From: Thermodesulfovibrionales bacterium
GTDB taxonomy: Bacteria; Nitrospirota; Thermodesulfovibrionia; Thermodesulfovibrionales; SM23-35
Length of the DNA stretch: 39,883 nucleotides
NCBI GenBank assembly: GCA_049700155.1
Contig: JBNAVX010000022.1
Coordinates: 1-39,883, forward strand
Direction of reading: 5' to 3'
Shown: piece after piece, positions 1 to 14,452 of the stretch
Layout of the letters: each line of letters starts with the position of its first letter
How positions within the stretch are numbered: position 1 is the first letter of the stretch
Notes under the pieces: model-generated
What the model saw: the letters and a program-made list of their open reading frames with translations, nothing else
Database searches by the model: none
What the model was told of the DNA's origin: nothing
Made by a program: the position numbers and the translations under genes

Positions 1-37
1 CTTTCAGTTCCCTCTTCATTGGGAAGTCAACTGCATC
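1..37 (-). CRISPR. Leader-proximal CRISPR repeat (37 nt, minus strand GATGCAGTTGACTTCCCAATGAAGAGGGAACTGAAAG); the array continues beyond the window edge
   Basis: Ends in GAAAG on the minus strand and has an internal TTCCC-N8-GGGAA palindrome. It lies just downstream of cas1-cas2-cas4 after an AT-rich spacer, and a degenerate copy occurs at 5009-5032. Only one full copy is visible, so the boundaries are inferred. Confidence 0.75.
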
Positions 38-160
38 TGCTCTTAAAATACCAAAAATTCAAAATGTTATACAAGCATGTTATAAAGAAATTTGGAAATT
101 CCTTTTTCTGCTTTTATATGTATCAGGTTTGCGAAAAACTGTTTTAAATTTATCCATAGG
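38..160 (-). promoter_or_regulatory. CRISPR leader
   Basis: AT-rich non-coding 123 bp between the cas4 stop and the repeat. Confidence 0.65.
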
Positions 161-745
161 TTAAAAAACATCTCTGCAATAGTTCCTGTATTCACAATCG
201 AAACATTTATTTCTATTAGCTACTGGCTCTGGCATCTTTTTCTTCTTAATCATCAGTCTTATATTAGAAAGCAACCTCATGGTTTCTTCTTTCAGTAAAT
301 TATTTAGTTCAAAAATAACTGCATCTTCAAGCGGTATTAGATAGACAAAACCATGACTAACTTTTTTATGGTAAATATCTTCAAGAATAAGTGCATAACC
401 ACAAAGTTGATAAATATGGTTTTTGTGTGGTTTCCTTTTTGTATATTTAAAATCAACAGGAATATATTCATCCTCTGTCTCTATGAGCATGTCGAGTTTT
501 CCTGAAAGAGAAAGTCTATCTGAATTTATTACAACATGAAAAAGCCTTTTACCCTCAATGACACCATACTTTTTAAGCTTACGTCTTGTCTCAAGTCTAT
601 CTATTCTTGCTTCTTCGATCTTTCCATAATTCATCTTGAATGTGGTTTTTTTCCCGACTGGCATAATATATTGGTAGTACACAACTCTCGGACAATAAAC
701 AAATTGCTTGAGATCACTTACCTTGAGAGGGGTCTGAGCTTGCAT
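161..745 (-). CDS. cas4: CRISPR-associated exonuclease Cas4
   Basis: Fe-S cysteines YCPR and CFDCEYRNYC; RecB-like GKLD/DFK/QLCGY motifs. Start moved to ATG 745 (MQAQ), which has a GAGGA SD upstream and overlaps the cas2 end. Confidence 0.95.
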   Translation of the reverse strand: MQAQTPLKVSDLKQFVYCPRVVYYQYIMPVGKKTTFKMNYGKIEEARIDRLETRRKLKKYGVIEGKRLFHVVINSDRLSLSGKLDMLIETEDEYIPVDFKYTKRKPHKNHIYQLCGYALILEDIYHKKVSHGFVYLIPLEDAVIFELNNLLKEETMRLLSNIRLMIKKKKMPEPVANRNKCFDCEYRNYCRDVF

Positions 746-1004
746 CCTTTTCCTCTTTGATATATTCAAGAATGCCCCTAAAATCTTTCTCGCACACGGG
801 AAGGATAAGAATCTTTCCAGAACCCTTTTTAATGACATTTTTAAGTTTTAAAAAAAGCTCCTCTCTTTTGTTCTGTCCTAATTTCCCTGAAAAACCGCTG
901 AACTGAATACGCTCAAGGCCAAAGTCCAGACATATATCTGCGATCTTATTCCTTATCCTGTTAATCTCAATGTCATAAAATACAAAATGTGTTAGTTCTT
1001 CCAT
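714..1004 (-). CDS. cas2: CRISPR-associated endoribonuclease Cas2
   Basis: 96 aa with VFYDI, R.KIA..C.DFGLERIQFSGF; sits between cas1 and cas4. Confidence 0.95.
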   Translation of the reverse strand: MEELTHFVFYDIEINRIRNKIADICLDFGLERIQFSGFSGKLGQNKREELFLKLKNVIKKGSGKILILPVCEKDFRGILEYIKEEKDASSDPSQGK

Positions 1005-1005
1005 C

Positions 1006-2196
1006 CTACCACTTGAAAGTGAAGGGTTTATAATCCTGCTGTCCTCTTAAAAAAGATGCCAGATTTCTTGCCTGCATCTGAATAATAGAGCGTATCTGGT
1101 ATTTCTTGCCTTTGTAAGTTTCGGTTGATTCAAGTCTGCCCAGGACTTTTTCCCCTATAATCTTTCTTGTTTCAGCATCAAGTAGCCCATCAGTGATTTT
1201 AATATCCTGTCCAAGGTTCACATGGGCAATAACCACTCTATCAACCACTGGCTGACGGAACTCTTCAATGAGGTCAAGAATAAGTGAAGGCTTTCCGGGT
1301 CTATCCACATGAAGAAATCCTGCAAAAGGCTCAAGCCCTGCATTAACCAGTGCTCCCCAAACAGTTGAATAGAGAATACCATAGCCATAGTTTAGAAGTG
1401 AGTTTACAGGATCTATTGCTCCCCTTGTCTGCCTACCAAAAAACTCTACCCTTTGCGTCAATATCTCCTTAACACCATCCCAGTAAAGCCTGCCTGCTGT
1501 GCCTTCAATACCGATAAGAGTATTTCTCTTCTCATCAATGCTGTTACCTGTAACTGCCTTAACCTTTCCTCTCAAATTATTGAGTTCTTCAGCAAGAGAA
1601 TCTATTGTCTTGTATCTTTCAGGATCAGTCTCTTTGATATACTTTCCAAAATATCTCAGGAGTCTTTCCTGATTAGTGATCTTTCCATAAACGATTGCCT
1701 TTGAAAATTCAAGCCCTCTCGGGTCTTTCATTGCTTCGAACTGTTCTCTACGAGCCTCTATAGTTGCTGTAAGCATCGGAGATGTAATCATCGCATAAGG
1801 CTTATTAACTCCTGAAAGAAAATGTAGAGTGATACCCCTTAAGCATAGTTCTTCAATAAGGTCTGATGAGATGGTTACACCTTTCGAGGCAATAACTACA
1901 TCTTTCAGCCGAAATAATGGGAATTGGTAAATAACATCCTTCCCTTTTCTGACAATCAGCCGCTCACTCTTTTTCGAAAGAAAGATCCTATATCCCGAGA
2001 GTATAATCTGTGAGATATCGCCGGTTTTCACTATGGTTATCCCTTCGTCTATTTTTACTTCGCCTTCGTATTGTGCTTCTACAAGTATTGGGATAGCTTC
2101 TGGTTCGCCTGTGAAAAGATTATACTGGGCAGGATAAAGAGGCTTCTCTTCAGGCTCATACTCAGGATGAATCCTCTGAACCTTTGACTGAGGCAT
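1006..2196 (-). CDS. cas1: CRISPR-associated endonuclease Cas1 with ~60 aa N-terminal extension
   Basis: GIEG, NSLLNYGY, GFLH and DLIEEFR catalytic motifs intact. The start is uncertain (alternative GTG near 2031). Confidence 0.95.
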   Translation of the reverse strand: MPQSKVQRIHPEYEPEEKPLYPAQYNLFTGEPEAIPILVEAQYEGEVKIDEGITIVKTGDISQIILSGYRIFLSKKSERLIVRKGKDVIYQFPLFRLKDVVIASKGVTISSDLIEELCLRGITLHFLSGVNKPYAMITSPMLTATIEARREQFEAMKDPRGLEFSKAIVYGKITNQERLLRYFGKYIKETDPERYKTIDSLAEELNNLRGKVKAVTGNSIDEKRNTLIGIEGTAGRLYWDGVKEILTQRVEFFGRQTRGAIDPVNSLLNYGYGILYSTVWGALVNAGLEPFAGFLHVDRPGKPSLILDLIEEFRQPVVDRVVIAHVNLGQDIKITDGLLDAETRKIIGEKVLGRLESTETYKGKKYQIRSIIQMQARNLASFLRGQQDYKPFTFKW

Positions 2197-2258
2197 ACAT
2201 AATATTTAACAGATAATAAAAGAACAGATAAGGATTTTAATCACAAAAAACAAGTTTG

Positions 2259-2288
2259 TTGACTTCTTGAGATACTACTTCATATACT
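2259..2288 (+). promoter_or_regulatory. Sigma70-type promoter for the Pif1-WYL gene
   Basis: TTGACT (2259-2264), N18, TATACT (2283-2288), ending 10 nt before the GTG start. Confidence 0.6.
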
Positions 2289-2298
2289 TTTAAAAGTT

Positions 2299-3858
2299 GT
2301 GAGTATCTGCAAACCTGGAAATATAGAGCTAAATGAACTGTTCCAGAAGGCACTTGACCTTATGGAGAATACCAACAGGCATGTCTTCATTACCGGAAAG
2401 GCAGGAACTGGTAAATCAACACTCCTTGACTATTTCCGAAATCATACAAGGAAAAAGGTGGTTGTCCTTTCTCCAACAGGAGTTTCTGCACTCAATGTAA
2501 AAGGACAGACTATACATTCCTTTTTTGGTTTCAAGCCAAATGTTACTTTAAATTCAATTAAAAAATTTAAAGGGGACCATAAAAATATTTACAAAGAACT
2601 GGATGCGATTATTATTGACGAGGCATCAATGGTTCGTGCTGATTTGCTTGACTGTATAGATAAATTCTTGAGGTTGAATGTAAATAAGAAGAGACCTTTT
2701 GGTGGAATCCAGATGATATTTATTGGTGATCTTTATCAACTCCCTCCGGTGGTTACAGGAAAGGAAAAGGAATTCTTCAATATATATTACAAAAGCCCTT
2801 ATTTCTTCGATTCTATGGTAATGAAAGAGATAGATATGGAATTTATAGAACTCGAAAAAATATACAGGCAAAAGGATGAAATTTTCATCGCCATTCTTAA
2901 TGCGATACGTAACAACTCAATCACTGATAAAGAGCTAAAAATCCTTAACCAGAGATATGACCCTGAATTTATCCCAGACCCGAAGGATTTCTACATCTGG
3001 CTCACATCTATGAACAATGCTGCAGAGAAGATAAATAGAGAACATCTTTCAAGGATTTCTTCACCTCTTATGACTTACCAAGGGGTGATAAAAGGAGACT
3101 TCAATGAAGACTCATTGCCTACACAGAGTGACCTTCAGATTAAGAAGGGGGCACAGGTTATGCTTCTTAACAACGATTCTTATTTTAGATGGGTAAACGG
3201 TAGCATAGGGAAGATTGTGAATATTATAAAGCAGAAAGATGAACCAGATATTATTGTTGTTGAATTGATTACAGGAGAGGTTGTTGATGTCCAGCCATAC
3301 AGATGGGAATTATTCAATTATTATTTTGATAAAGAGAAAAACACCATTGAATCTGAAGTGGTTGGCTCATTCACTCAGTATCCCATGAAACTCGCATGGG
3401 CTGTAACCATCCATAAGTCGCAGGGTAAGACCTTTGACAAGGTAGTGATAGATATAGGAAGAGGGACATTTGCAAGTGGCCAGGTCTATGTCGCACTAAG
3501 CAGGTGCACACGACTTGATGGCATAGTTCTCAAAAAGCCATTAGAGAAAAAGCACATATTTATGGACTGGAGAGTGGTGAAATTTTTGACTCAGTTTCAA
3601 TATAAACTCTCAGAAAATCTTTGTCCTTTTGAAGAAAAGCTGGCTCTGATAAAAAGTGCTATAAAAACAAACCAGAGGCTTGAGATTGTTTATCTCAAAA
3701 ATAATGACACTAAATCCAGAAGGATTATAACTCCTGTTTCTGTTGGGGAAATGGAATATAATGGAAGAAAATACATCGGAATGGAGGCATTCTGCCATTT
3801 AAGAAATGACAGGAGGGTATTCCGCCTCGATAGAATTCTAGAGATCAGGGAAGTATAG
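2299..3858 (+). CDS. Pif1-family SF1B helicase with C-terminal WYL domain
   Basis: GKAGTGKS, IIDEASM, PFGGIQMIFIGDLYQLPPV, AVTIHKSQG and GQVYVALSR helicase motifs; C-terminal AI...LEIVY...RIITP...AFCHLRNDRRVFRLDRI is a WYL signature. Confidence 0.9.
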   Translation: MSICKPGNIELNELFQKALDLMENTNRHVFITGKAGTGKSTLLDYFRNHTRKKVVVLSPTGVSALNVKGQTIHSFFGFKPNVTLNSIKKFKGDHKNIYKELDAIIIDEASMVRADLLDCIDKFLRLNVNKKRPFGGIQMIFIGDLYQLPPVVTGKEKEFFNIYYKSPYFFDSMVMKEIDMEFIELEKIYRQKDEIFIAILNAIRNNSITDKELKILNQRYDPEFIPDPKDFYIWLTSMNNAAEKINREHLSRISSPLMTYQGVIKGDFNEDSLPTQSDLQIKKGAQVMLLNNDSYFRWVNGSIGKIVNIIKQKDEPDIIVVELITGEVVDVQPYRWELFNYYFDKEKNTIESEVVGSFTQYPMKLAWAVTIHKSQGKTFDKVVIDIGRGTFASGQVYVALSRCTRLDGIVLKKPLEKKHIFMDWRVVKFLTQFQYKLSENLCPFEEKLALIKSAIKTNQRLEIVYLKNNDTKSRRIITPVSVGEMEYNGRKYIGMEAFCHLRNDRRVFRLDRILEIREV

Positions 3859-3866
3859 AAGAAAAG

Positions 3867-4277
3867 CTAGTCATCAAATTTAATAGAATTCTTTATACTC
3901 TCGACAAATCTATTAGCCATCTCAAGTGCCTCAGCAGAATCCTTAAGTTTGAAAGTAGATTCAGGATAGTAGTCTGCTTCTTCACGCAATTTCATGAGTC
4001 TACCGATAATCCGTCCGATATCAATTTCTATCTCCTTCGTCTTAACGTAATAAAGGCTGAACATCCTTTCTACTCCTTCATGAGTTTTAGGAACAACTCC
4101 CTTAAGAAGCAGTGCTGCCTTTGCAGCATGATATACTGCATAATATGCCGATACAATGCTTTTGAAATAAAGCTCATTCTCTTGCAAAACCCTTGCAGAT
4201 TTTAGTTCATCCAGTGACCGCTGGAATTCATCACGAGCAAGTATCTTGCCTTCCTCTTTACTTATTCTCTCGACCAT
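3867..4277 (-). CDS. HEPN domain protein (UPF0332/COG1895-like)
   Basis: SAYYAVYHAAKA, KTHEG and LREEADY motifs; overlaps the upstream MNT gene. Confidence 0.88.
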   Translation of the reverse strand: MVERISKEEGKILARDEFQRSLDELKSARVLQENELYFKSIVSAYYAVYHAAKAALLLKGVVPKTHEGVERMFSLYYVKTKEIEIDIGRIIGRLMKLREEADYYPESTFKLKDSAEALEMANRFVESIKNSIKFDD

Positions 4278-4627
4278 ACAATAATCCCCTCTTTTTTAAC
4301 CCCTTTTAAAAAAAGACTGATACTTTTATTAAACTCGGATTCTGGTACAAAAATAGCTGAAACTACTATGTCGTTGGCAAGCTCATGGTTATAAATAATA
4401 TCACTAATCTCCATTTTGGAAGAAAGTGGAATGTCATAATCAGTTATAAAAAGCAGGTCAATGTCTGATTCTTCTACATAATCTCCCCTTGCTTTAGATC
4501 CATAAAGTATAACCTTCTTGACAAAAGGATATTTTTCTGTCAATTCTCCTATTATGCCTTTTAACCCTTTTTGTTCGTTATAATTGAGAGGGATTAAATT
4601 AATATTTATCATAGAAACACTTTCCAT
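4262..4627 (-). CDS. Minimal nucleotidyltransferase (MNT), partner of the HEPN gene
   Basis: LYGSKARG...SDIDLL Pol-beta-superfamily motif; the start may be ATG 4612. Confidence 0.88.
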   Translation of the reverse strand: MESVSMININLIPLNYNEQKGLKGIIGELTEKYPFVKKVILYGSKARGDYVEESDIDLLFITDYDIPLSSKMEISDIIYNHELANDIVVSAIFVPESEFNKSISLFLKGVKKEGIIVWSRE

Positions 4628-4683
4628 TATATTTCCAATATTTCAAATATATAATAAAACATTGAGGTTAAATTTTATAGAGA

Positions 4684-4728
4684 TTTCAAAAAACAAAAGG
4701 ATGTTTTCTATATAAACCCAGTTTTCAC
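4684..4728 (-). pseudogene. Relic 3' end of a second cas5
   Basis: Aligns with 6384-6429 with one indel; reads ENWV/LYRKHPFVF* versus ENWVLYKKHPFVL* in the intact cas5. Confidence 0.75.
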
Positions 4729-4744
4729 TATGACAATCTTCTAC

Positions 4745-4992
4745 TTAAATGAATCCTTCCTTAATCAAAAATTCTTTTGGTTTTATAATTTCTATACCTT
4801 CATAATTGCCTAAATCAAGAAGATGATGGTCACCAAAGATAATATAATCTGCCTTTCCATCTATAGCACATTCAAGGAAGATATTATCTGTAGGATCATC
4901 CTTTATAACACTAATTTTGCTCTCTACTTCAAAAAAATGCATAAATTTTCTAAGATTGTTAACATAGGAAGGATCTCAGCAGGAGTCAGTCC
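4745..4992 (-). pseudogene. 5'-truncated, frameshifted PIN toxin paralog
   Basis: The last 65 aa are 50/65 identical to the PIN protein at 8049-8459. The upstream GLTPAEILP is in another frame (1-nt deletion near 4964), and the N-terminal ~53 aa including the first catalytic Asp are missing. Confidence 0.88.
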
Positions 4993-5008
4993 TTTGATCC
5001 AGCAAAAC

Positions 5009-5045
5009 AATTTAGTTCCCTCATCATTGGGATATTTTTTTTGGG
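5009..5045 (-). CRISPR. Solitary degenerate CRISPR repeat
   Basis: 5014-5032 AGTTCCCTCATCATTGGGA matches repeat positions 6-24 AGTTCCCTCTTCATTGGGA at 18/19, and the hairpin core is retained. It is intergenic and in the same orientation as the array. Confidence 0.7.
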
Positions 5046-5118
5046 GGCTTTATTTATAACTTATCATACTTAATCTTTACAGAAAAACGCGAGTATAAAT
5101 AGGAAATATAAACTATTA

Positions 5119-6246
5119 TCATTTCAAATGTCTAAGCCAGAGACCAAAAACTGTATCAACTACATGAAATACACCATTCTTTTTTTCTATATAATCCAGG
5201 TCTATCAACCTTTTTATGGCTCCCTGAACCCCTCCTATAGAACCGAGGTTATATCTGTTCATATATTCGATTGAGTATGGTTTATCTGTGGGCTCCTCAG
5301 ATAGGGCGGACAACAGTTTTATCTGTTGAGGCGCAAGAACTTGAAGCATTGCTTCGTATATCGGTCTTTCTTCATTAATGACTTTGATAAATCCCTTTGA
5401 ATAGTTCTCTTCAGTTATATGTTTACCGCTAACCTCATATATAGAATAGGGAACTCTCTGAATGTAATATGGATAACCTTCAACCTTTTCAGAAATTTTT
5501 CTGGCGATTTCCTCTGGACATATCTTTCCGCCACGCCTGAATTGCTCAACTATAAATGCTGTGGATTCATTGAGTGGCAGTGGACCCAAAGGGTAGTTAA
5601 TAGCACTTCTGTAGAAAGGTCTTTTCCGCTCATTAAAGATCTCGCTCAATATCCTTCTCCTGCTTCCTACAAAAAAATATGAAGCATTTCTATGGGTCTG
5701 TATATGAGCCCTCATGATACCTTCTATCTGAAGAGATTCACGTAATTCGGCAATCTCCTGAAATTCATCGATTACTACATGGAAGCCTTTCTTACTCGAC
5801 TCCATAAACTTTCCAAAGCCAGCAAGAACATCCTCAAGCAGCTCAATCCCCCTTCTTTTTCCCGCGGGCTCGGCAGTTATGGACATCCCGTATTCAGGAT
5901 CAGGACGTATGACTGGCCTCCATGATGTTATAAACTTTATTGCCTTCTTTAAGAGATTATCATCTTTATGACAGTAGGAATATAATCTTGAGGCTAATCT
6001 TGATGCTATATCTTCTAAAGAATATACTCCAAAGAAATCAACGTAAAGAGTAATAATTCCCTCGCTTGACAACTCTGCCTGAATTCTTTTTACAAGGGAC
6101 GTTTTTCCATAACGCCTTGGAGAAAAAAGCACGACATTTGCCTTATTTCGTGAATGTGAAAGGAGTTCTTCAATCTCTTTTTTTCTGTTACAGAAAGGAG
6201 CTGTCAGGGGAAGCTCCCGAAAATAAAATGGGTTCGCCAGCGGCAC
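5119..6246 (-). CDS. AAA-family ATPase (archaeal ATPase_2-like) with C-terminal winged helix
   Basis: NPF...FCNR, Walker A SPRRYGKTS, Walker B VVIDEFQ, GYPYYIQ; C-terminal wHTH-like segment. Confidence 0.85.
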   Translation of the reverse strand: MPLANPFYFRELPLTAPFCNRKKEIEELLSHSRNKANVVLFSPRRYGKTSLVKRIQAELSSEGIITLYVDFFGVYSLEDIASRLASRLYSYCHKDDNLLKKAIKFITSWRPVIRPDPEYGMSITAEPAGKRRGIELLEDVLAGFGKFMESSKKGFHVVIDEFQEIAELRESLQIEGIMRAHIQTHRNASYFFVGSRRRILSEIFNERKRPFYRSAINYPLGPLPLNESTAFIVEQFRRGGKICPEEIARKISEKVEGYPYYIQRVPYSIYEVSGKHITEENYSKGFIKVINEERPIYEAMLQVLAPQQIKLLSALSEEPTDKPYSIEYMNRYNLGSIGGVQGAIKRLIDLDYIEKKNGVFHVVDTVFGLWLRHLK

Positions 6247-6250
6247 TCAC

Positions 6251-6306
6251 CTCTCTTATAATTATCCTATTATAGTTACTCTCTTATAGTTACTATATTA
6301 TAGTAA
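6251..6306. repeat. Four tandem degenerate 14-bp units upstream of the ATPase, probable operator
   Basis: CTCTCTTATAATTA / TCCTATTATAGTTA / CTCTCTTATAGTTA / CTATATTATAGTAA, including the palindrome TTACTATA-T-TATAGTAA at 6290-6306. Confidence 0.75.
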
Positions 6307-6320
6307 AAATGATAAATCAA
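6292..6320 (-). promoter_or_regulatory. Sigma70-type promoter for the ATPase gene
   Basis: Minus strand TTGATT (6320-6315), N17, TATAGT (6297-6292). Confidence 0.55.
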
Positions 6321-6385
6321 GAATAAATACAAAGCATAAAAGCATAGAGGGATTTCATATGTATGATGTCAGAAAAATAGTGTTT

Positions 6386-7081
6386 TCAAAGAACAAAAGG
6401 ATGTTTTTTATAGAGAACCCAGTTTTCACCTTGCCGTTCTTCTATCAGTGGAAGGACAAAAATTTTCTGAATATAAGGATTCCCTCTTTTACCTCTTGCG
6501 TACGGGTTAACTTGAGAAAATTGAGCATCTTTTTTTAATTCATTCAATGTGGCAATCGGACGTCTTGCAAGATTTGACACTTCTAATTTCAAAACATTTG
6601 TCTCTTTACAGGTAGAATTGAATATTGGCTCTTTATCTTCAATCTGTGCTATCCCTCTTACTATAGAATCAGTTGTTCCCAAGCGCCTTAATATTCGAAA
6701 GAGGTTAGCTATTTCATCTTCTCTTTCTGAAATCTCAAGATAAATTCTAAGTGGTCCCCAAAAATGACAATACTCTCTTACACCGAAGGATTCTTCAAAA
6801 CTTTTTTCTTTAGATTTTGAAGGTTTTAATCTCTTAATGAAAAACTTGAGGACCACTACTTTTTCAGGTGGTTCTATCTCCAGTGGCGACGACTTAACTA
6901 TCTCAAAGACCTCTTCACCATAAGATACTTTTCCTGTTGATTTTATTGCGGAATCTACCAATGCAAGCCTCAAAGCCGCAGGGCTTGGAATGAGTGAAGT
7001 CAGGGCATAACCCGGAGATAGATTTGGCATCCTGTAAGAGTAAAGACTTGCGAAATGAAGTTCTGCAGATATCCAGGCCAT
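6386..7081 (-). CDS. cas5: Cas5 (type I-A-like RAMP)
   Basis: N-terminal FASLYSYRMP...IPSPAALRLAL, REY and RRLGTTDS motifs; directly after cas7. Confidence 0.85.
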   Translation of the reverse strand: MAWISAELHFASLYSYRMPNLSPGYALTSLIPSPAALRLALVDSAIKSTGKVSYGEEVFEIVKSSPLEIEPPEKVVVLKFFIKRLKPSKSKEKSFEESFGVREYCHFWGPLRIYLEISEREDEIANLFRILRRLGTTDSIVRGIAQIEDKEPIFNSTCKETNVLKLEVSNLARRPIATLNELKKDAQFSQVNPYARGKRGNPYIQKIFVLPLIEERQGENWVLYKKHPFVL

Positions 7082-7090
7082 ACTTGCTCC

Positions 7091-8023
7091 TTATTTTGGA
7101 ATGGCTAACTTATAAATATCTTTTGTTGACAACCCATCCATAATCAAGCAAAGTTCAGCCAAGTTAGCAAATTTTTGAGTAGATAGGCCTTTTTGTTTTT
7201 CCACGATTTTATCTATCTCTGTTATGTAATCATCTCTTATAGGGCTTATTGCTGGAGCAGGAAAGTTCGTTTCAGAGATAACTACTATTCCCTCTATTGC
7301 CTCTATATGTGGAAGTCGTGTAGATGTCATCGCACCGTCTGTTCTCACAAATGTCGCTTTATATGCATTAAGAGCTAACTGATAACGATTCTTTCTTCCG
7401 GCGTCATCTATTGCATAACTGTAGTCAACTTCATTTAGACCGATCCTCCATGGCTGGAAAACCGAAACAATAGCATATATGCCTGAGCGCGTTGGCCTGT
7501 GGTAAATCATTTGTGCGGTAACTGCACCTTCTACTTTCTCTTCTTCTGCTTCTGATTCCTCTTTTGTTCTCCCAACCATAGAATGCCTCGCATGTAAATG
7601 GATATCTCTATGAGTTTTTTCTGGCAATCCAAGTGCCCAACCAAACTCTACAGTAGATGGTCTTGCAATAGTAGGCCTTTGAACTAAAAAACCATGAAGG
7701 TCACAGAGGGCACAAGACTTTATAGCCTCACTCATAGCCTTTGCCTCATTTAATTTATTACCACTTACCATGGGGTTCAAATCTGCTTTTTGTGGATGAA
7801 ATTTTTGACATGCTGCGCAAAACTGACTTTTATCTTCCTGTAATAGCCACACATTATAAGAATGAATATGTTTAAGCATCTCACCAGATATGCCATCGGT
7901 TTTTTCTCCACTTGCTAAAACAACAGTTCGAGGCTCTGTGACATTGCCAACAGTGCCCTCGTTATTTAATGAATGGAGATTCCATGTAACTCTACCTAAA
8001 ATTGCTATCTCAAAAATTGCCAT
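7091..8023 (-). CDS. cas7: Cas7 backbone subunit (DevR/Csa2 family)
   Basis: LHSLNNEG, DGISGEMLKH, CxxC...CxxCDLHGF and RPTRSGIYA motifs. Start set to ATG 8023, which has a strong SD upstream. Confidence 0.92.
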   Translation of the reverse strand: MAIFEIAILGRVTWNLHSLNNEGTVGNVTEPRTVVLASGEKTDGISGEMLKHIHSYNVWLLQEDKSQFCAACQKFHPQKADLNPMVSGNKLNEAKAMSEAIKSCALCDLHGFLVQRPTIARPSTVEFGWALGLPEKTHRDIHLHARHSMVGRTKEESEAEEEKVEGAVTAQMIYHRPTRSGIYAIVSVFQPWRIGLNEVDYSYAIDDAGRKNRYQLALNAYKATFVRTDGAMTSTRLPHIEAIEGIVVISETNFPAPAISPIRDDYITEIDKIVEKQKGLSTQKFANLAELCLIMDGLSTKDIYKLAIPK

Positions 8024-8048
8024 TTGATTCCTCCTCGTTAACAATCTT

Positions 8049-8459
8049 TTAAATAAATCCTTCTCTAATTAGAAAATCTTTTGCTTTTATAATCTTAATT
8101 CCTTCAAAAATACCTATATCAAGGAGATGATGATCACCAGAAATAATATAATCTGCCTTACCATCCAATGCACATTCAAGAAATATATTATCTGTGGGGT
8201 CATCCTTAACAATATTGATTTTGCTTTTTACTTCAACAAAATGTACAAATTTTCTCAGCGTGTTAACAATAGGAAGTATTTCAGCAGGAGTCAATCCGAA
8301 CTTAGAATAAGCCAAAACTCTTATAAATTCTGCTTCTATTTTCGTATTATAAAGAATGGCAAGTTTACCACTTTTTGCTAATTCAAGTATAGTTCTTGGG
8401 TAACCTTTCCAGAAAAAAGCTGAGATGGTAACATTGGTATCAAGGACTATGCGTTTCAA
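8049..8459 (-). CDS. PIN-domain (VapC-like) toxin
   Basis: IVLDTNV, E, DPTDNIFLECA and IISGDHHLL acidic active-site motifs; TTG start overlaps the upstream TGA. Confidence 0.9.
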   Translation of the reverse strand: MKRIVLDTNVTISAFFWKGYPRTILELAKSGKLAILYNTKIEAEFIRVLAYSKFGLTPAEILPIVNTLRKFVHFVEVKSKINIVKDDPTDNIFLECALDGKADYIISGDHHLLDIGIFEGIKIIKAKDFLIREGFI

Positions 8460-8680
8460 TAAAGACCTCGGGATTCATGTATTATCTTTTCGATATCTTC
8501 CTCTGTAAGTTTTGAGAATCCCTTTTCCTCTGCCAGAGCTTCTGTATAAGGATAGATATCAGCTTCTTCTATGGGAATCAGGATTACTTCATATATTTTG
8601 CCTGTCTCTTTGGCAAAATTCTCAGGTAAAGATAGATGACCATCGGGTAAAACCTTACCTATAAATTTTTTTGCTTGCAT
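8456..8680 (-). CDS. Putative antitoxin (AbrB-like N-terminus, acidic helical C-terminus)
   Basis: 74 aa with GKVLPDGHLSLPE and an acidic tail; has a GGAGG SD and is coupled to the PIN gene. Confidence 0.7.
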   Translation of the reverse strand: MQAKKFIGKVLPDGHLSLPENFAKETGKIYEVILIPIEEADIYPYTEALAEEKGFSKLTEEDIEKIIHESRGLY

Positions 8681-8693
8681 TGAGTTACCTCCT

Positions 8694-9017
8694 TTATTCT
8701 TCTTTCAAACCTCTAACAAGGGCATGGCTTATAAGCGCTGCCCGAACCAATCTTACACCATAATCACTTACTAACTTCATAAGTCTTTCTAAACTCTCTT
8801 CTGTTGGTCTTTTTAAATGCATTTGTCGAGCATGTGTCTCGTATCTGCGTAAAAATTTACGTAAAGCATCTGCAAAGTCTTCCTCTTTCTCAGCATTTTC
8901 CAATTCAATAAGAGATGCATAATCCTGGATTTCTTCCATTCTTAAAGCCTTACGCAATGTGCTTCCAAAGTCTTTTATAGCTTCATCAGAGTAAAGCATA
9001 GCTAAGCTATCTGACAT
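8694..9017 (-). CDS. cas11: Cascade small subunit (Cas11/Csa5-like)
   Basis: 107 aa, predicted all-helical, overlapping the cas8 stop and with a GGAGG SD. Assigned mainly by position. Confidence 0.7.
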   Translation of the reverse strand: MSDSLAMLYSDEAIKDFGSTLRKALRMEEIQDYASLIELENAEKEEDFADALRKFLRRYETHARQMHLKRPTEESLERLMKLVSDYGVRLVRAALISHALVRGLKEE

Positions 9018-10092
9018 AAGCTATCACCTCCTTTAAGGTATCATCACTATATAAATTTGCGGATTTAATCTCTTTTGGTTTTGATATATATTTAAGGAAT
9101 ATTTTTACATGTTTCTCGTAGGTTTCAATTGTCGGATTCATAACAAATTCTGTTATTGCCTCAGCTATATCCTCGCATCCCTGGATGCTTCCTTTTCTGA
9201 ATAGATAATTCCAGACCTCAAAAACCTTTTCTATATTAGGCTTTCCCGACAAAGCAAGTTCCATAAGTGGATAAAGGCTTAAATTGCCTCCTGCAGATGG
9301 CTTAAACTGTTGACCGCTTTGAACCATTGAGAAATAAAAAATACCAGAAAACCTGTCAGCAAATTGAGATTTTGATGCTGCCAGTTCTCGCATCTTTTCT
9401 GCAAGGACAACAGAAAAATGGGCAGCAGCATTCTGAACACTCAAATATTTAAGAGCAGTAGTGTATGTAGAGTTTGTAGAGTTCCTTATTTCTCTAAAAT
9501 TATTAAGTTCAATCCTTTGAGGTACAGGAAAGATTACAAAGTAGTCCCACTTATTACCTTGAGCTTTTTGAGCTTTGTATCTTCCAGAAACAGCACCGCC
9601 AAGACAGGCAAGTGCCCAGTTGTAAATATCGACCTTAGTCTGCCCTTCAGAGTAATCGCTTCTTGTTCTTCCTTTGAGTCCTTTAAAAGCTGACGGGTCA
9701 AGAGGTCCTGAAAGGGTTTCGCCCTTGTCTGAAGATATCTCAGGAAGGTTTGTAGGACTTTGAAAATCCTTGCTAATCTTTTCAGCGTCTTTGCTCAATA
9801 TATCTTTTACCTTTTTAACTTTCTTTGACCAGTTCTGTTTATCAGTAAGAAAGATCCTGCTCCATGTCCTGTCATCCGGGGATTCTTCAAATAGGGAATG
9901 CCATGCAGGGTCTTTAAGAAGTCTTTCGTGTGAAATATCTATTGAACCATGCTCAATTAGATAAAAACTTCCTGCATTATTTATAACAGGAGTTTCACCT
10001 TCGAGGCTTGCGTTGTCCAGTAACATAGCTAACCCATAAGCCCTGCAGAGATCAAAAATTTCAAGCCCGGTTTTAACTATGTAATATCGCAT
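9007..10092 (-). CDS. cas8: Cascade large subunit (Cas8a-like)
   Basis: N-terminal YYIVKTG...D...AYGLA pattern and position between cas3 and the small subunit. Start set to ATG 10092. Confidence 0.7.
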   Translation of the reverse strand: MRYYIVKTGLEIFDLCRAYGLAMLLDNASLEGETPVINNAGSFYLIEHGSIDISHERLLKDPAWHSLFEESPDDRTWSRIFLTDKQNWSKKVKKVKDILSKDAEKISKDFQSPTNLPEISSDKGETLSGPLDPSAFKGLKGRTRSDYSEGQTKVDIYNWALACLGGAVSGRYKAQKAQGNKWDYFVIFPVPQRIELNNFREIRNSTNSTYTTALKYLSVQNAAAHFSVVLAEKMRELAASKSQFADRFSGIFYFSMVQSGQQFKPSAGGNLSLYPLMELALSGKPNIEKVFEVWNYLFRKGSIQGCEDIAEAITEFVMNPTIETYEKHVKIFLKYISKPKEIKSANLYSDDTLKEVIAYVR

Positions 10093-12304
10093 CTTTTCCC
10101 CCAGTAGCAATTCTGTCAGAAAGCCTCAATGCCCTTGACAGGATGACATAGAGATTGTAACTCTTTTCTTTTTCAAAGGGGGGGGAATGACTGGAAAGAG
10201 ATGTTGGGGAATTTTGAACGACGAAGTTCTTCACTTCCTTCCAATCGAGTTTCATCCTTAATTCAGATAGCACTCCATCAACCTCATCAAACCACCCATC
10301 ACAGAGTTTATAATTCGGAACTTTTGTGGCTCTGACAGAATGGTGATGGGCTATGGCAAAGAAAGCAGCATCTCCAATAATATTACCCCATTCTTTTCTG
10401 AGATAATCTCTCAATATATATGCAGAAACCGTTGCATGTGGTGGAAGCTTAACCTTTTCCAGATTCCCGGAATGGGCAAGGAATTCTTTCGAAGATCCAA
10501 TTTTTTGCTGCCATTCCATTGTAAGCTTACCGAAGTCATGCATAGCAATAACAAATCTTAAAATGTCTAAAAGTTTATCTTTATCCATATTATATGCATG
10601 AGAGATTTTTGAGTAAACAAAATCTTCATCTGGAAGGATATATTTTTCAAATGCCTCTATGGTTTTTAATGCATGCTCTCTCCATGTTTCCAGAGGAATT
10701 TTATTAAATGATGAATCCATTGAGATTTGTTCCATTTCAAAAGGTTCAAGAGAGTCACCCTGTTTTCCTAAAATAAGACCAAAGTCTGGATTGTAAAATG
10801 CATAATCACTATGTATCACATAGAATCTGCTTGAAGCGACACTTTTCTCAGAGTAAATTAGAACTGCTTCTATTTTAGGATTGTAATCGTCATCCATATC
10901 TCTGTCTTGCTCGATAAGCCAGATTTTGGGGTTCTTTTCCTTAATAAATCTTTTCAAAGTGCCAGGATGTATCTTACATTTAGGAAGATTGAATACCTTA
11001 ATTCCAAGAGATTCAGGTTTATCGTGTATAGAAACCTCAACAGAGATAGCATCTCTGACCGCCTTTTCAGCAATGGCAGGCTTCCCCTCAAAAGCGCCTT
11101 TCGAAAGATACATCATAGCCTTAGCCCCGGCTTCTGGCTTAGCTAACTCCATGAATGGTTTTTCAAGAACTTCATCAACCATATTCTTTTCAAGTAGCCA
11201 TGTAAGTCGTTCATTCTTATATTTTTCAATAACTGTCTTTGTATTAGCGACAAGGTTCTTTTCGTAAGGTGCATGATGAGGGATATCAAAAACAATCACA
11301 TTACCTTCTCCTCCCCATCTGGCACATCTCCCAGCTCTTTGTATTAGGGCATCGATTGGTGCAAGTTCTGTAATGAGTAAATCACATGATATATCCATCC
11401 CAACTTCTATTACCTGTGTTGTAATAAGCAAAGCTTTATCTTTGCTATCTTTGCCGAAAAGTCTTTTTATATCGTCTTCTTTCTTCGCTCTATCATCATC
11501 CAAAAATCTTGAATGAATAAGAGTAGGTTTCGGTATTACTTTATCCCTCAATTCTGAAAACAGATTGATAGCCCTATCAACTGTATTGCAAACCGCAATA
11601 GTTCTGCCTGTGTGACTGTTGTGTAGTCTTAAAACTTCATTTGAAGAAAGTAGATCTTTAAGATTCTCTTTTAATATCACTTTTCTCTTAGTTCTGACAG
11701 GTATCGCATCTTCTTCGACATCTATTACATTAGTATTAAATCTTTCGGACAAAGAATATACAAATCTGGTTGGAAGGGTAGCAGACATAATAACAAATGG
11801 AATGCCAAGATTTTTCATTCTTTCAGCCAAAATCAAAGTACTCTGAAGTCCGAGCATTAGTTCAAAGGTATGAACTTCATCAAAAACAAGAAAGCTTGAT
11901 CCTATGGCACCTGCAGGAATATTGCCATGCCTTACTCCAAGAGACAAAGGAGCACAGGCATAAGATGTAATTGTCTGGTCAAGAGTTGCAACGATGCAGT
12001 CAGCATCAAATAAAAGACTTTCTGTTCTTTTGCCATGCTGAGCTCTTATATCGAGATGAGGAGCATAACCTTTAAATCTTTCATGCAATGAATTAACAAG
12101 TGCTCTCATCGGGAGAGAGTAAATCATTCTATGGGGAAGAAACTTACCTCTTAAATCCACAAAAGGCACAAATACTGCCTCGCTCTTCCCACTTCCTGTT
12201 GGTGCTCTAAGGATAGCCGACTGTCCGCTCTTAAGTGCCTTATAAGTTTCTATCTGGTGGGGATAAGGGTCATAGTCTGTGAGGGTTTTGAACTGCATAA
12301 TCAT
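10073..12304 (-). CDS. cas3: Cas3 with N-terminal SF2 helicase and C-terminal HD nuclease
   Basis: APTGSGKS, DEVH, SAT and QRAGRCAR helicase motifs, followed by EH, MHDFGK, PHA, HHH and SD HD-domain motifs. Confidence 0.93.
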   Translation of the reverse strand: MIMQFKTLTDYDPYPHQIETYKALKSGQSAILRAPTGSGKSEAVFVPFVDLRGKFLPHRMIYSLPMRALVNSLHERFKGYAPHLDIRAQHGKRTESLLFDADCIVATLDQTITSYACAPLSLGVRHGNIPAGAIGSSFLVFDEVHTFELMLGLQSTLILAERMKNLGIPFVIMSATLPTRFVYSLSERFNTNVIDVEEDAIPVRTKRKVILKENLKDLLSSNEVLRLHNSHTGRTIAVCNTVDRAINLFSELRDKVIPKPTLIHSRFLDDDRAKKEDDIKRLFGKDSKDKALLITTQVIEVGMDISCDLLITELAPIDALIQRAGRCARWGGEGNVIVFDIPHHAPYEKNLVANTKTVIEKYKNERLTWLLEKNMVDEVLEKPFMELAKPEAGAKAMMYLSKGAFEGKPAIAEKAVRDAISVEVSIHDKPESLGIKVFNLPKCKIHPGTLKRFIKEKNPKIWLIEQDRDMDDDYNPKIEAVLIYSEKSVASSRFYVIHSDYAFYNPDFGLILGKQGDSLEPFEMEQISMDSSFNKIPLETWREHALKTIEAFEKYILPDEDFVYSKISHAYNMDKDKLLDILRFVIAMHDFGKLTMEWQQKIGSSKEFLAHSGNLEKVKLPPHATVSAYILRDYLRKEWGNIIGDAAFFAIAHHHSVRATKVPNYKLCDGWFDEVDGVLSELRMKLDWKEVKNFVVQNSPTSLSSHSPPFEKEKSYNLYVILSRALRLSDRIATGGKDAILHS

Positions 12305-12356
12305 CTCCTCTTTCTAACTCCAGCCAATATTTAAAAAACTAAATAATTCATAGTGC

Positions 12357-13409
12357 CTATATTTTTTCCCATACCTTATCATGAAATTTAATTTTATTCT
12401 CTTTTTTCATATCTGATAAAGCCTTCTTGATTATGGATTCAGGTATATTTGCACACACATCTCTAAGCATAGAAATAGTAAATCTTTCAGGCAATCGGTC
12501 TATTTGTCTTCTTACTTCAAAGTAACTACCTCCTGTCAATGAAGGTGCTTCACCATATGTTTCTAATGCCTCTGCTATTTTTAATGGAGGGCTATCTTGT
12601 TCATGAGATCTTATGGCAGAAAAAAATCTCAAAACCCACTCATTAGCAAGTTTTCTGTTCCCAGCAAAAATAATATTGAGTTTCGGATGAAGGGCAAAGA
12701 TTTCTGCAATCGCTTTTGCAGCAAATGAAGGTTGATAGAATCTCAATTTCTCGGGCTTAAGGAAATCTGAATAATTAGCCTCTATAAGGAGGGCATTGTG
12801 CTCGTATGCCTCAAGTTCAGTAAGCTGCTGGTGAAAGGCTGGCATCCTTCCAAATTCAGAAATAATATTTTCATATGTTTTTCTTTCAATAACTGCAATA
12901 AGTCTATTTTCAACTTTCAGTGCATAATCACCTATTGGAAGTCTTCCCTTTTCTGTATAACAACCTGTGAACTTTAAGGGATATCTTTCATTCGTGTCAA
13001 TGACGATGTGAAGATCATATGTTTTATAAGTTGTGAGTTTTACCTTTGGCCTTCGTTCTCTTAAGGCTTGTTGTGTTCTCCAGAATATCTGTTCATATGA
13101 ACCTTCTCTGGTTTTGTATTGTTTTTCAAGAAAAAGAAAATCACATCTTTTATTTTTTGCTCTATCGAGAACAACAACGAGTCTTTTGCCATAGCGTCTT
13201 AGGGAAAGCACGGGTACTCTCTCTATTTCTTCTACAATCTCTGGCCACTGTCTCGATTCTTCCCTTATACAGAAGATCTGTCCTTTTGTACCTGGCCATC
13301 TATCTTGTACCCTCAGGCATAATATGTTGTCGTCACCTTTTTTAATACTCAGACGAAATGGAAATTTCTCATCCCTTGTAGACTCAATTATCCAGAGTGT
13401 TTTATTCAT
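12357..13409 (-). CDS. ERCC4 (XPF/Mus81-family) nuclease domain protein with C-terminal wHTH-like domain
   Basis: IVIDTNE, LPIGDY and VIERKT motifs. ATG 13409 overlaps the cas6 TGA (ATGA). Confidence 0.85.
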   Translation of the reverse strand: MNKTLWIIESTRDEKFPFRLSIKKGDDNILCLRVQDRWPGTKGQIFCIREESRQWPEIVEEIERVPVLSLRRYGKRLVVVLDRAKNKRCDFLFLEKQYKTREGSYEQIFWRTQQALRERRPKVKLTTYKTYDLHIVIDTNERYPLKFTGCYTEKGRLPIGDYALKVENRLIAVIERKTYENIISEFGRMPAFHQQLTELEAYEHNALLIEANYSDFLKPEKLRFYQPSFAAKAIAEIFALHPKLNIIFAGNRKLANEWVLRFFSAIRSHEQDSPPLKIAEALETYGEAPSLTGGSYFEVRRQIDRLPERFTISMLRDVCANIPESIIKKALSDMKKENKIKFHDKVWEKI

Positions 13410-14374
13410 CTCACTATCCTGTACCACCCGTTTCCAAAGACTACATCTTCTCCTACATGGACATATTCGCCCAAGACAATTAGTGGTAAAAACTCTTTCA
13501 AGTCTCCTTCAAAAGTAATATCACCGATAAATCCACTCTGATCATGATAAACAGGCTGTGTCCTGCTCTTACGTTTGATATCAAGCCACTTAAGATTTAC
13601 CTCCCTTGTCTTTATTTTCATTGCCCTCTCTGCTATACCTTTAAAATCCACATCAATTGGACCTCCACAATAAGTTGAAGAAAGTGCGTTAACCCTGTCT
13701 CTGAGCCTTCTGATGATATGGTGAAATTCTGGAACTCTTACTACTTTACTTTTACCTTTTTCTCCTGAAGGATTGTACCTAATCCTTGTTGGCGTGAGAA
13801 ACTTAAGAGTTATTTTTTGCCCATTTATTTTTCCTACATATCCCAGAATTTCTTTACCTGTCACAGTTTTCTGGACATTTTTGACTATATTAGATTGAGA
13901 ATCATAGATGGATTCAGGTGAAGAAGAGTAAAAAGGCAGTATACTTATATCTGTAAGTGTAAACCTTCCTCTGTTTAGACCTATGCCATACTTCCCGAGT
14001 TCTATCAGAGGCACTATCACATATGGAAGGTAATTTATCCTGTCACCTATTAGAACCATATCAAAAGAAAAAGGTCTTTCAGATGAATATACTACTTCTT
14101 TTTCAAGTGGTGGATTCAGGACAAAACCACGTGGCACATCGTGTAATCTCTTTGCAGGATTAATGCCTACGGGATTGAATATCGATATATAGGCACATTT
14201 GTCTTTTAATATGCATCCGCCACATTTTGACTCTTTATTAACACATACGAGTCTTTTTAAGGATGAGCCGAAAGCGCCTCTAAGGATATTACCTTTATTA
14301 AAGGCAGGCATCTGGATTATGTTTTCGGGAGTAAGAGTAAACCTGCAGTGAGCGAGTTTAAAATCTTCAAACAT
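13406..14374 (-). CDS. cas6: Cas6 pre-crRNA processing endoribonuclease
   Basis: GNILRGAFG, Cys cluster, FLTPTRI, GFIG and C-terminal G-loop HVGEDVVFGNG. Confidence 0.92.
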   Translation of the reverse strand: MFEDFKLAHCRFTLTPENIIQMPAFNKGNILRGAFGSSLKRLVCVNKESKCGGCILKDKCAYISIFNPVGINPAKRLHDVPRGFVLNPPLEKEVVYSSERPFSFDMVLIGDRINYLPYVIVPLIELGKYGIGLNRGRFTLTDISILPFYSSSPESIYDSQSNIVKNVQKTVTGKEILGYVGKINGQKITLKFLTPTRIRYNPSGEKGKSKVVRVPEFHHIIRRLRDRVNALSSTYCGGPIDVDFKGIAERAMKIKTREVNLKWLDIKRKSRTQPVYHDQSGFIGDITFEGDLKEFLPLIVLGEYVHVGEDVVFGNGWYRIVR

Positions 14375-14452
14375 ACATTCTGCTCATATATGTCAAAAAA
14401 TATTCAATTTTTCAGAAAGTGAGTGATATAGCTCGATTTCAGAAATTAATTT

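Follow-up and report, generated by a model that had tools for sequence, protein, structure and literature searches.

A solitary half CRISPR repeat among toxin–antitoxin genes of a bacterial type I-A cas locus: a probable recombination scar

Does a lone repeat-like sequence, lying among toxin genes ∼5 kb from the CRISPR array of a cas locus, specify a crRNA-like guide, or was it left behind by recombination? The question was raised by a preliminary description of the locus, which had proposed either a Cas6-processed guide linking Cascade to the neighbouring toxin–antitoxin (TA) modules or the scar of a lost array. The DNA analyzed here (the window, 39,883 nt) is a whole contig (C22) from the genome of a Thermodesulfovibrionales bacterium (G000), and starts inside a CRISPR repeat. 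The lone sequence, a half repeat, is termed psiR.

The type I-A locus and its half repeat

The 37-nt array repeat reads CTTTCAGTTCCCTCTTCATTGGGAAGTCAACTGCATC on the plus strand and GATGCAGTTGACTTCCCAATGAAGAGGGAACTGAAAG on the minus (functional) strand, where it ends in the handle ACTGAAAG. One repeat lies at window 1-37, and contig C165 ends in four more. C165 and the window overlap by 55 identical nucleotides, the last of the former and the first of the latter, which gives an assembled array of 5 repeats and 4 spacers. Its most distant copy, as counted from the window, has a degenerate 3′ end (ACTGATTA), which places the leader at window 38-160. The features of the locus are as follows.

1-37 and 38-160, minus strand: leader-proximal array repeat and leader (rest of the 5-repeat array on C165)
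161-838, minus: cas4 (NCBIfam/Pfam)
714-1004, minus: cas2 (NCBIfam/Pfam)
1006-2196, minus: cas1 (NCBIfam/Pfam)
2299-3858, plus: PIF1-WYL helicase gene
6386-14374, minus: type I-A effector operon (cas6, ERCC4-domain gene, cas3, cas8a, cas11a, inserted vapB-like/vapC pair, cas7, cas5a), composed of the nine genes below
6386-7081, minus: cas5a (PADLOC Cas5a, 6.1e-31)
7091-8044, minus: cas7 (PADLOC Cas7, 7.1e-57)
8049-8459, minus: vapC of the cas operon
8456-8680, minus: vapB-like gene, 74 codons (the inserted pair occupies 8049-8680)
8694-9017, minus: cas11a (PADLOC Cas11a, 4.9e-38)
9007-10110, minus: cas8a (PADLOC Cas8a, 2.6e-39)
10073-12304, minus: cas3, helicase with a C-terminal HD domain (NCBIfam/Pfam)
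12357-13427, minus: ERCC4-domain gene
13406-14374, minus: cas6 (NCBIfam/Pfam)

Since the PADLOC profiles return Cas5a, Cas11a and Cas8a, the system is assigned to type I-A, and Cas8a, Cas11a (Csa5), Cas7 (Csa2), Cas5a, Cas3, Cas6, Cas1, Cas2 and Cas4 are all present. Housekeeping genes follow from 14453 onward. The Cas3 is unusual in that a single protein combines the helicase and, C-terminally, the HD domain. Cas10 is encoded on a separate contig, C170.

Between the effector operon and the helicase gene, psiR sits in the following context, listed in the direction of minus-strand transcription.

6377-6444, minus: E1, the cas5a 3′ end, encoding ...GENWVLYKKHPFVL and the stop codon; a conserved cassette-insertion site in several genera
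5119-6246, minus: PF01637-type ATPase gene
5033-5118, minus: upstream flank, 86 nt of unique A+T-rich DNA from the ATPase stop codon to psiR, in place of the repeat's 5′ 13 nt
5009-5032, minus: psiR (half repeat), inner hairpin and degenerate 8-nt handle, 20/24 identical to the 3′ part of the array repeat
4993-5008, minus: 16-nt linker GTTTTGCTGGATCAAA, from the handle to the start of vapC homology; 5′ end of the would-be pseudo-spacer
4745-4992, minus: vapC copy, a PIN toxin gene, 5′-truncated and frameshifted, 82% identical to 8049-8297
4677-4743, minus: E2, second copy (84%) of the last cas5a codons and downstream bases (element E)
4262-4627, minus: MNT nucleotidyltransferase gene, TA pair with HEPN
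3867-4277, minus: HEPN gene, TA pair with MNT

The core match that first drew attention to psiR was recovered: at 5014-5032 (plus strand) AGTTCCCTCATCATTGGGA agrees with the array core AGTTCCCTCTTCATTGGGA (window 6-24) at 18 of 19 positions. The TCCC-N8-GGGA hairpin is intact, as had been stated, and reads TCCC-AATGATGA-GGGA (5032-5017); psiR has the orientation of the array, which is ∼5 kb off. On the minus strand the handle is ACTAAATT (5016-5009) against ACTGAAAG in the array, a match at 5/8 positions, and the next bases are GTTTTGCTGGATCAAAGG. Of the 37-nt repeat, psiR retains no more than the 3′ 24 nt. Upstream of psiR the positions of the repeat's 5′ 13 nt match at 2/13, and the breakpoint is sharp.

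The array repeat is predicted to fold into an inner stem, UCCC/GGGA, and an outer stem, CAGU/ACUG (−7.7 kcal/mol); psiR, having lost the outer stem, would form the 4-bp inner stem alone (−5.3 kcal/mol). Four substitutions separate psiR from the array repeat, one in the loop and three in the handle. All four avoid the 8 stem bases, a weak signal given a calculated chance of 0.17. Among listed sequencing runs, the stretch 3860-6400 is represented in one DNA run (a hot-spring metagenome) and in no RNA run. A 1358-nt contig of DNA run X1 spans 4703-5600 with zero differences; this run probably derives from the same sample as the assembly and is not independent of it.

Chance resemblance and distribution among relatives

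Might A+T-rich intergenic DNA resemble a repeat by chance? We scanned for the array core with ≤3 mismatches, and the window contained 2 matches vs. 0.05 expected; none of 100 shuffles gave 2. Across the 2.05-Mb genome, at ≤2 mismatches, all 9 matches were psiR, array repeats or two degenerate repeats adjoining the array, and a reversed-pattern control gave 1 match. With the array repeat as blastn-short query, psiR was the best non-array match (19 nt, E 0.039 genome-wide), the next best being 14 nt long. Stretches reaching ≥17/24 identity to the hairpin plus handle averaged 0.07 in shuffled window 1-15000 (30 shuffles); the actual sequence has just the array repeat (24/24) and psiR (20/24), which bears out the earlier statement that no second repeat lies beside it.

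Some results do speak for chance. The reversed-pattern control with ≤2 mismatches gave 8 matches across 57 genomes, the isolated 2-mismatch matches seen in two genomes (G051, G055) are themselves probably due to chance, and a match in G022 overlaps a ribosome-binding site and start codon. Against this, psiR has 1 mismatch in 19 and 20/24 overall, sits within the 14-kb cas locus in the array's orientation, and has a 24-mer that is absent from 316 other genomes of the order. We regard chance resemblance as highly improbable. The identities in the core and over hairpin plus handle, together with the shared orientation, are those of a CRISPR-derived standalone (ectopic) repeat, and on this comparison of sequences psiR is a truncated, genuine copy of the locus's own CRISPR repeat.

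An informative locus is that of G065, from the same family and another genus. It has the same array repeat, leader, cas4, cas2, cas1 (86% aa identity) and helicase (82% aa), and its helicase gene ends only 68 nt from the homologue of window 6269-6442, the E/promoter region; window 3860-6268 is without counterpart there, and the HEPN/MNT pair forms the far end of the missing segment. A Cas7 scan of all species-representative genomes returned five cas7-orthologue loci (64–89% aa), and none of the five contained a solitary repeat at ≤4 mismatches. In L049 and L050 cas1 lies ∼100 nt after cas5, and in L046 (= G066) the genes after cas5 are one for an HTH-nucleotidyltransferase and a 5′-truncated cas1. 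In all four loci that cover the junction (L046, L048, L049, L050) there is no room for a vapB/vapC pair between cas11a and cas7.

Homologues of the ATPase gene were found in 12 of the 401 phylum genomes sampled (G000 included) and in 80 metagenome loci. The repeat core (≤3 mismatches) was absent from all 80 metagenome loci with the ATPase and from the seven ATPase 3′ flanks examined in other genomes; the idea that psiR travels with the ATPase gene was therefore discarded. Of the 317 genomes of the order, G000 alone contained a psiR-specific 24-mer (≤3 mismatches). The same-genus genomes G001 (96% complete) and G002 (70% complete) gave no match to the region or the repeat. Since both are without the locus, the absence of psiR from relatives means absence in other genera. 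The conservation in related loci on which the preliminary description had made a regulatory role depend was thus not found in the relatives examined, that is, in the five cas7-orthologue loci, G065 or the 316 other genomes of the order; no same-genus genome has the locus.

Guide, decoy and processing-site readings

CreA was reportedly described by Cheng and co-workers in 2021 as the antitoxin RNA of CreTA modules. By analogy with CreA or CreR, processing of the half repeat would yield a crRNA-like RNA which, once in the I-A Cascade, would pair partially with a toxin or cas promoter and repress it. The richness of the cas locus in TA modules, the array orientation and the intact hairpin are in keeping with such a guide.

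We looked for its target by a PAM-free search of the whole genome with would-be spacer positions 1-5 and 7-11 as seed. The 254 places that match 9–10 of the 10 seed positions are within the range of 20 shuffled spacers (6–164 per 0.725 Mb). No seed-plus-extension target was found genome-wide: the overall maximum was 22/36 and the best full-seed match 20/36. On the window's contig the seed-level matches besides psiR itself were just those at 496, 5088, 8418 and 29608, each with 9/10 in the seed and 13–15/36 overall. The preliminary description had found no convincing PAM-flanked target in the window. Neither a cas promoter of the same locus, as for CreR, nor a toxin promoter with extended partial complementarity, as for CreA, was recovered by the PAM-free search. 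The pseudo-spacer matches the vapC of the cas operon at 18/21 positions from nt 17 onward, which might be read in favour of a guide. In register, however, its first 16 nt match at 5/16, so that the similarity reflects common descent and not targeting.

A creT-like partner was likewise not found. Since the plus strand of the 86 nt upstream of psiR lacks an ATG, there is no divergent small SD-ATG gene, and the TTG frame downstream, 28 codons long, is what remains of vapC and not a creT. No second repeat was found one spacer away in window 1-15000, where a 22/37 match at 7290-7326 is at chance level; psiR is therefore not half of a mini-array with two repeat-like sequences about one spacer apart. 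Comparison of window 1-15000 with Rfam (E ≤ 1) gave 0 matches, and the minus-strand fold of 4940-5120 was no better than that of shuffles (z 0.29). Promoter-like sites in 4500-6500 (9) were not above shuffles (7.9, sd 3.2). The upstream flank holds part of a weak promoter-like site (5134-5105) and the TATGAT hexamer that had been taken for a −10-like element; the hexamer is indeed present (5068-5063, minus strand), but without a usable −35 hexamer. No terminator-like sites were detected in 4500-6500.

According to the available text of Shmakov et al. 2023 (bioRxiv 10.1101/2023.03.03.530964), type I loci commonly contain standalone repeats that pass a 16-bp match threshold; psiR passes it and, like them, is repeat-derived, degenerate, outside the array and intergenic in a type I locus. 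As described there, the pipeline requires conservation in closely related loci, which psiR lacks in the relatives examined. The functional candidates in that text are mostly mini-arrays of two repeats that target a cas or cargo promoter, whereas psiR is single and no target was found for it in the PAM-free search; mini-arrays are given there for ∼15% of type I loci, and none for bacterial I-A loci, a further point against a guide. Standalone repeat-like sequences in cas loci have thus already been described, and psiR is one more instance, without the conservation that defines the regulatory subset.

Resemblance to CreA is similarly partial. In the portion of Cheng et al. 2022 (PMC9458426) that bears on this, CreA is a degenerate ectopic repeat in a type I cas locus with toxin genes, it can derive from one or two ectopic repeats, and its orientation follows the same logic as that of psiR (Cas6 site, then would-be guide). 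As CreTA is presented there, the psiR locus differs by the absence of psiR2, of an adjacent creT-like small toxin gene and of a partial promoter match, and by a poorly kept handle (5/8), the handle being described as critical for Cas5 binding. The toxins neighbouring psiR are, unlike those of CreTA in that text, parts of protein TA systems (PIN, HEPN). CreR and mini-arrays that autorepress cas operons, as far as they are set out in the text available of bioRxiv 10.1101/2023.03.10.532045, are also degenerate CRISPR-derived elements in cas loci. Compared with these, psiR has no seed-plus-extension match to the window's cas promoters, lies far from cas8a and cas6, and is a single truncated repeat. 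With one repeat, a 5/8 handle, no target in the PAM-free search, no creT partner, no Rfam match and no counterpart in the relatives examined, the proposed guide linking Cascade to the TA modules finds no support, and we consider it very unlikely. If psiR is a scar, a solitary repeat beside toxin genes should not be taken as evidence for a CreA-like guide.

A decoy brought in by a mobile cassette, sequestering Cas6 or Cascade subunits in the manner of an RNA anti-CRISPR, is scarcely credible. psiR is a solitary unit with a hairpin and a partial handle, within inserted DNA, and Racrs, in the available text of Camara-Wilpert et al. 2023 (PMC10651486), are solitary repeat units that mimic the array repeat. 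Those Racrs are viral-encoded, whereas psiR belongs to a cas locus on the chromosome and is not surrounded by mobile-element genes: genes of integrase, phage or plasmid type were not found in 2197-6385, and psiR was not found to lie on a phage, prophage or plasmid. The psiR core had 0 matches in viral contigs, the array core matched in 2 stretches (by a rough estimate about the chance number for 18 specified bases), and psiR is not carried with the ATPase gene elsewhere.

Could psiR instead serve as a minimal Cas6 processing site on cargo mRNAs? Read-through transcripts running from the ATPase gene through the vapC remnant to MNT-HEPN would then be cut at the hairpin base, between 5017 and 5016. 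The inner hairpin and the cleavage context are intact, and psiR lies sense-oriented 86 nt past the ATPase stop codon in a region lacking terminator-like sites. The retained 24 nt correspond to the module conserved between divergent arrays whose Cas6 proteins are similar (78% aa identity between G000 and G044), and the sense-oriented IVP genes bracketed by repeats in G064, G013, G065 and on C165 suggest that repeat-flanked mRNAs are a habit of the family. Against such a site, the outer stem CAGU/ACUG that array repeats conserve is lost and the hairpin is reduced to 4 bp (−5.3 kcal/mol), the Cas6 has no PDB relative that could be found by sequence, ATPase homologues elsewhere have no such element, and the downstream neighbour is a dead gene fragment. 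From these sequence features we judge a Cas6 site of this kind unlikely. If it were real, the ATPase mRNA would acquire a Cas6-bound hairpin at its 3′ end, the downstream TA transcript would be uncoupled, and cargo-gene expression would be tied to Cas6 activity.

The broader proposal, that CRISPR repeats in this bacterial family double as Cas6-dependent mRNA punctuation for cargo genes and that psiR is one such mark, is rather more doubtful still. Under it, cargo expression would depend on Cas6, giving a protein-level cousin of CreTA-type addiction that acts via RNA processing and not via Cascade binding. Only if Cas6 cutting at psiR were both real and consequential would psiR be a natural case of Cas6 shaping non-CRISPR mRNAs.

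Gene debris and the insertion hot spot after cas5a

psiR is CRISPR-derived, is truncated at a sharp breakpoint, and is followed by a broken vapC copy and a second cas5 3′ end. The ∼490 nt that separate the ATPase gene from the MNT-HEPN pair, and in which psiR lies, are gene debris. On one side, homology of the ATPase region with its closest relative, metagenome locus L075 (87% aa, 84% nt), extends over 6290-5122 and ends at the stop codon. On the other, vapC homology begins abruptly at 4992. This copy is without its first 54 codons and has a 1-nt deletion, and is thus a pseudogene. The exact stretch without any homologue, 4993-5118 (126 nt), runs from the ATPase stop codon to the breakpoint of the truncated vapC copy. 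Its upstream part, 5033-5118, had no homologue in any relative, and neither the 86-nt nor the 16-nt flank matched the leaders, trailers or spacers of 155 loci, the best matches (12–14 nt) being at chance level.

We conclude that psiR probably has no guide function and is a scar that recombination left in an insertion hot spot beyond cas5. The scar of a lost array or rearrangement, which the preliminary description had offered as its second possibility, fits the context: psiR and the truncated, frameshifted vapC copy meet at a sharp junction, in a segment that G065 lacks. This conclusion draws on (i) the mosaic context, with ATPase homology ending at the stop codon, vapC starting abruptly at 4992 and E2 beyond it; (ii) a lineage-specific segment without counterpart in G065, at a hot-spot site, psiR itself not being found in the relatives examined; and (iii) the recurrence in the family of solitary repeats at gene-fragment junctions. 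psiR differs from the array repeat at 4/24 positions (17%) and the neighbouring pseudogene from its paralogue at 18%, as neutral decay would give; psiR thus appears to decay at the rate of its pseudogene neighbour. Shmakov et al. 2023, in the available text, ascribe standalone repeats to the recombinogenic propensity of repeats, which agrees with a scar.

As a scar, psiR would be a by-product of the insertions, duplications and deletions that have repeatedly remodelled the stretch from cas5a to the adaptation genes in this lineage. Illegitimate or repeat-mediated recombination would have brought a terminal, 3′-degenerate repeat, or part of one, to the site. Later events would have trimmed it to hairpin and handle: on one side the ATPase gene would have arrived, and on the other vapB and the 5′ end of vapC would have been lost. 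Degenerate terminal (trailer-end) repeats share the degenerate 3′ handle, as in G000 (ACTGATTA), G064 (ACCTTTAT) and G065 (ACTGAGGT); psiR differs in standing alone ∼5 kb from the array, on the leader side, with the 5′ third missing.

Several observations count against a scar. In the repeats of L047 and L048 the first 13–14 nt differ and TCCC(A/T)ATGAAGAGGGAACTGAAAG is kept, so that what survives in psiR is the very module conserved between arrays with different 5′ ends. The sparing of the stem by the substitutions points the same way, weakly. psiR is probably transcribed, since it shares the sense orientation of the entire cas operon and 4500-6500 showed no terminator-like site, and Cas6 may cut it if the region is transcribed; nothing indicates that a product is used. 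Moreover, the 86-nt and 16-nt flanks match nothing in the loci compared and so point to no donor event, and few relatives are close enough to inform.

The hot spot itself is seen in other genera, where element E recurs at ∼90% nt identity. G022 and G065 have two copies each, flanking the same DUF433-DUF5615 toxin–antitoxin pair, G044 has one downstream of a type I-D effector operon, followed by the same TA gene, and G066 has one. Since E copies lie beside cassettes in several genera, the stretch after the last effector gene repeatedly takes up cassettes, duplicating the 3′ end of that gene. As a marker, psiR helps to show that the post-cas5a stretch of type I-A (and neighbouring I-D) loci is a hot spot, where insertion of TA and other cassettes duplicates the cas5 3′ end. 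If a scar, psiR is a commonplace example of the recombinogenic CRISPR repeats that lie scattered through cas loci.

A possible second example is the G022 match (TCCCAATAATGAGGGAAC), located 82 nt beyond an E copy; however, the ORF preceding AbiEii has its ribosome-binding site and ATG within this match, and controls also match at its mismatch level. The A-to-T loop change common to psiR and a repeat on contig C7 of G044 (a 17-nt exact match) was set aside as no evidence, the search pattern having allowed both bases. Origin of psiR as the end of a lost IVP cassette, an idea suggested by the ATAT that precedes the C-run at psiR and at IVP right-end repeats, was rejected: no AGTCTAAGAG-type terminal motifs occur in window 1-15000, and the IVP ‘half repeats' are full-length degenerate repeats that keep TGTAGTT and the outer stem.

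Elsewhere in the family, a near-full solitary repeat lies between an N-terminal cas3 fragment and cas6 on contig C83 of G044. At array ends in at least four genomes (G064, G013, G065 and, on C165, G000), full or degenerate repeats in array orientation bracket a sense-oriented 23S-rRNA-IVP (Avd-like) gene. The degenerate repeat on G044 C7 is at the edge of a defence island beside TauE, and TauE also adjoins the repeat-bracketed cassette of G064.

Copies of the cas5a 3′ end and further genes of the cas locus

The 3′ end of cas5a encodes ...GENWVLY(K/R)KHPFVL* and retains ~90% nucleotide identity between genera. Copies of this segment were located at the following sites.

Copies of the cas5a 3′ end (element E)
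G000 (the genome of the window), 6377-6444, minus strand: copy E1
G000, window 4677-4743, minus strand: copy E2
G022 (another genome), contig C100, 3809-3853 and 4557-4599 (fetched locus L041): two copies
G065 (same family as G000, other genus), contig C50 (L058, 4442-4483 and 5191-5244): two copies
G044 (another genome), contig C83, 372-429 (L039): one copy
G066 (another genome), contig C146: one copy

The inserted cassettes are flanked by the duplicated cas5a 3′ end, and in G022 and G065 the cassette is the same DUF433-DUF5615 toxin-antitoxin pair. The duplication of this segment around cassettes suggests that the end of the effector operon is an insertion site or a recombination hot spot.

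Further genes lie within or next to the cas genes of the window. In the type I-A effector operon, an inserted vapB-like/vapC (PIN) pair (8049-8680) separates cas11a from cas7, two genes that are adjacent in 4/4 relatives covering this junction. Between cas6 and cas3, and in operon with them, lies a gene (12357-13427) whose 356-aa product contains an ERCC4 nuclease domain and received no family assignment from PADLOC or NCBIfam. A helicase of the PIF1 family that carries a fused WYL domain (window 2299-3858 in G000; L058 2694-4250 in G065; 82% at the amino acid level) adjoins cas1 divergently in both genomes, and seems to accompany their adaptation module as a conserved accessory.

Genes for 23S rRNA-intervening-sequence proteins bracketed by repeats

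Genes for 23S rRNA-intervening-sequence proteins (IVP; Avd-like, PF05635) were observed at the trailer ends of arrays or closing a type III-A operon.

Sites of IVP genes
G000, contig C165 (L008:1496-2640)
G064, contig C66, 7994-8468 (L043)
G013, contig C309 (L022)
G065, contig C50 (L042)

In all four genomes the IVP genes are sense-oriented, with a repeat as left flank and a degenerate repeat as right flank, and the units have inverted ends of the AGTCTAAGAG/ACTTTTAGACT type. The G000 unit measures 551 bp and is duplicated in tandem on C165. The repeat-bracketed IVP unit looks like a cassette residing within CRISPR arrays, and Cas6 could release it. A figure legend in PMC10910872 names the 23S rRNA IVP among array-associated proteins.

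Solitary repeats and other repeat-like sequences

A nearly full-length solitary repeat (33/37, own count) is present in G044 (C83 9483-9519; L039). It is sense-oriented, lies ~200 nt upstream of a type I-D cas6, right after an N-terminal cas3 fragment, and is placed like the mini-arrays upstream of cas6 as outlined by Shmakov et al. (bioRxiv 10.1101/2023.03.03.530964). As a CreR-type element it would be a better candidate than the half repeat at window 5009-5032.

On the minus strand of a viral contig (L073, positions 15-33), 21 nt (TTCCCAATGAAGAGGGAACTG) agree exactly with the hairpin and the beginning of the handle; they are preceded by an A+T-rich stretch and followed by a possible start codon. 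Since the count of viral matches to the repeat is about that expected by chance, this match is probably a coincidence.

Inside cas4, a 37-nt stretch (window 289-325, minus strand) shares 24/37 positions with the array repeat: its two ends (GATGCAGTT, ACTGAAAG) are identical to those of the repeat and correctly spaced, and the middle is unrelated. In the shuffle control for 37-nt repeat matches, a mean of 0.33 stretches per shuffle reached 22/37. The stretch codes for EDAVIFELNNLLKE of Cas4, is partially retained in G065 cas4, and may be a coincidence in conserved coding sequence.

Elsewhere in G000, a ~36-nt element, (T/C)TTTTTCTGGATTGTCCGATCAAGTCGGACAATGAC, with a palindrome within it, is found on many contigs (for example C59:128, C74:150, C124:2575 and C153:287). 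It occurs at least 15 times among the seed-search matches in this genome and resembles a repeat of the REP or MITE type.
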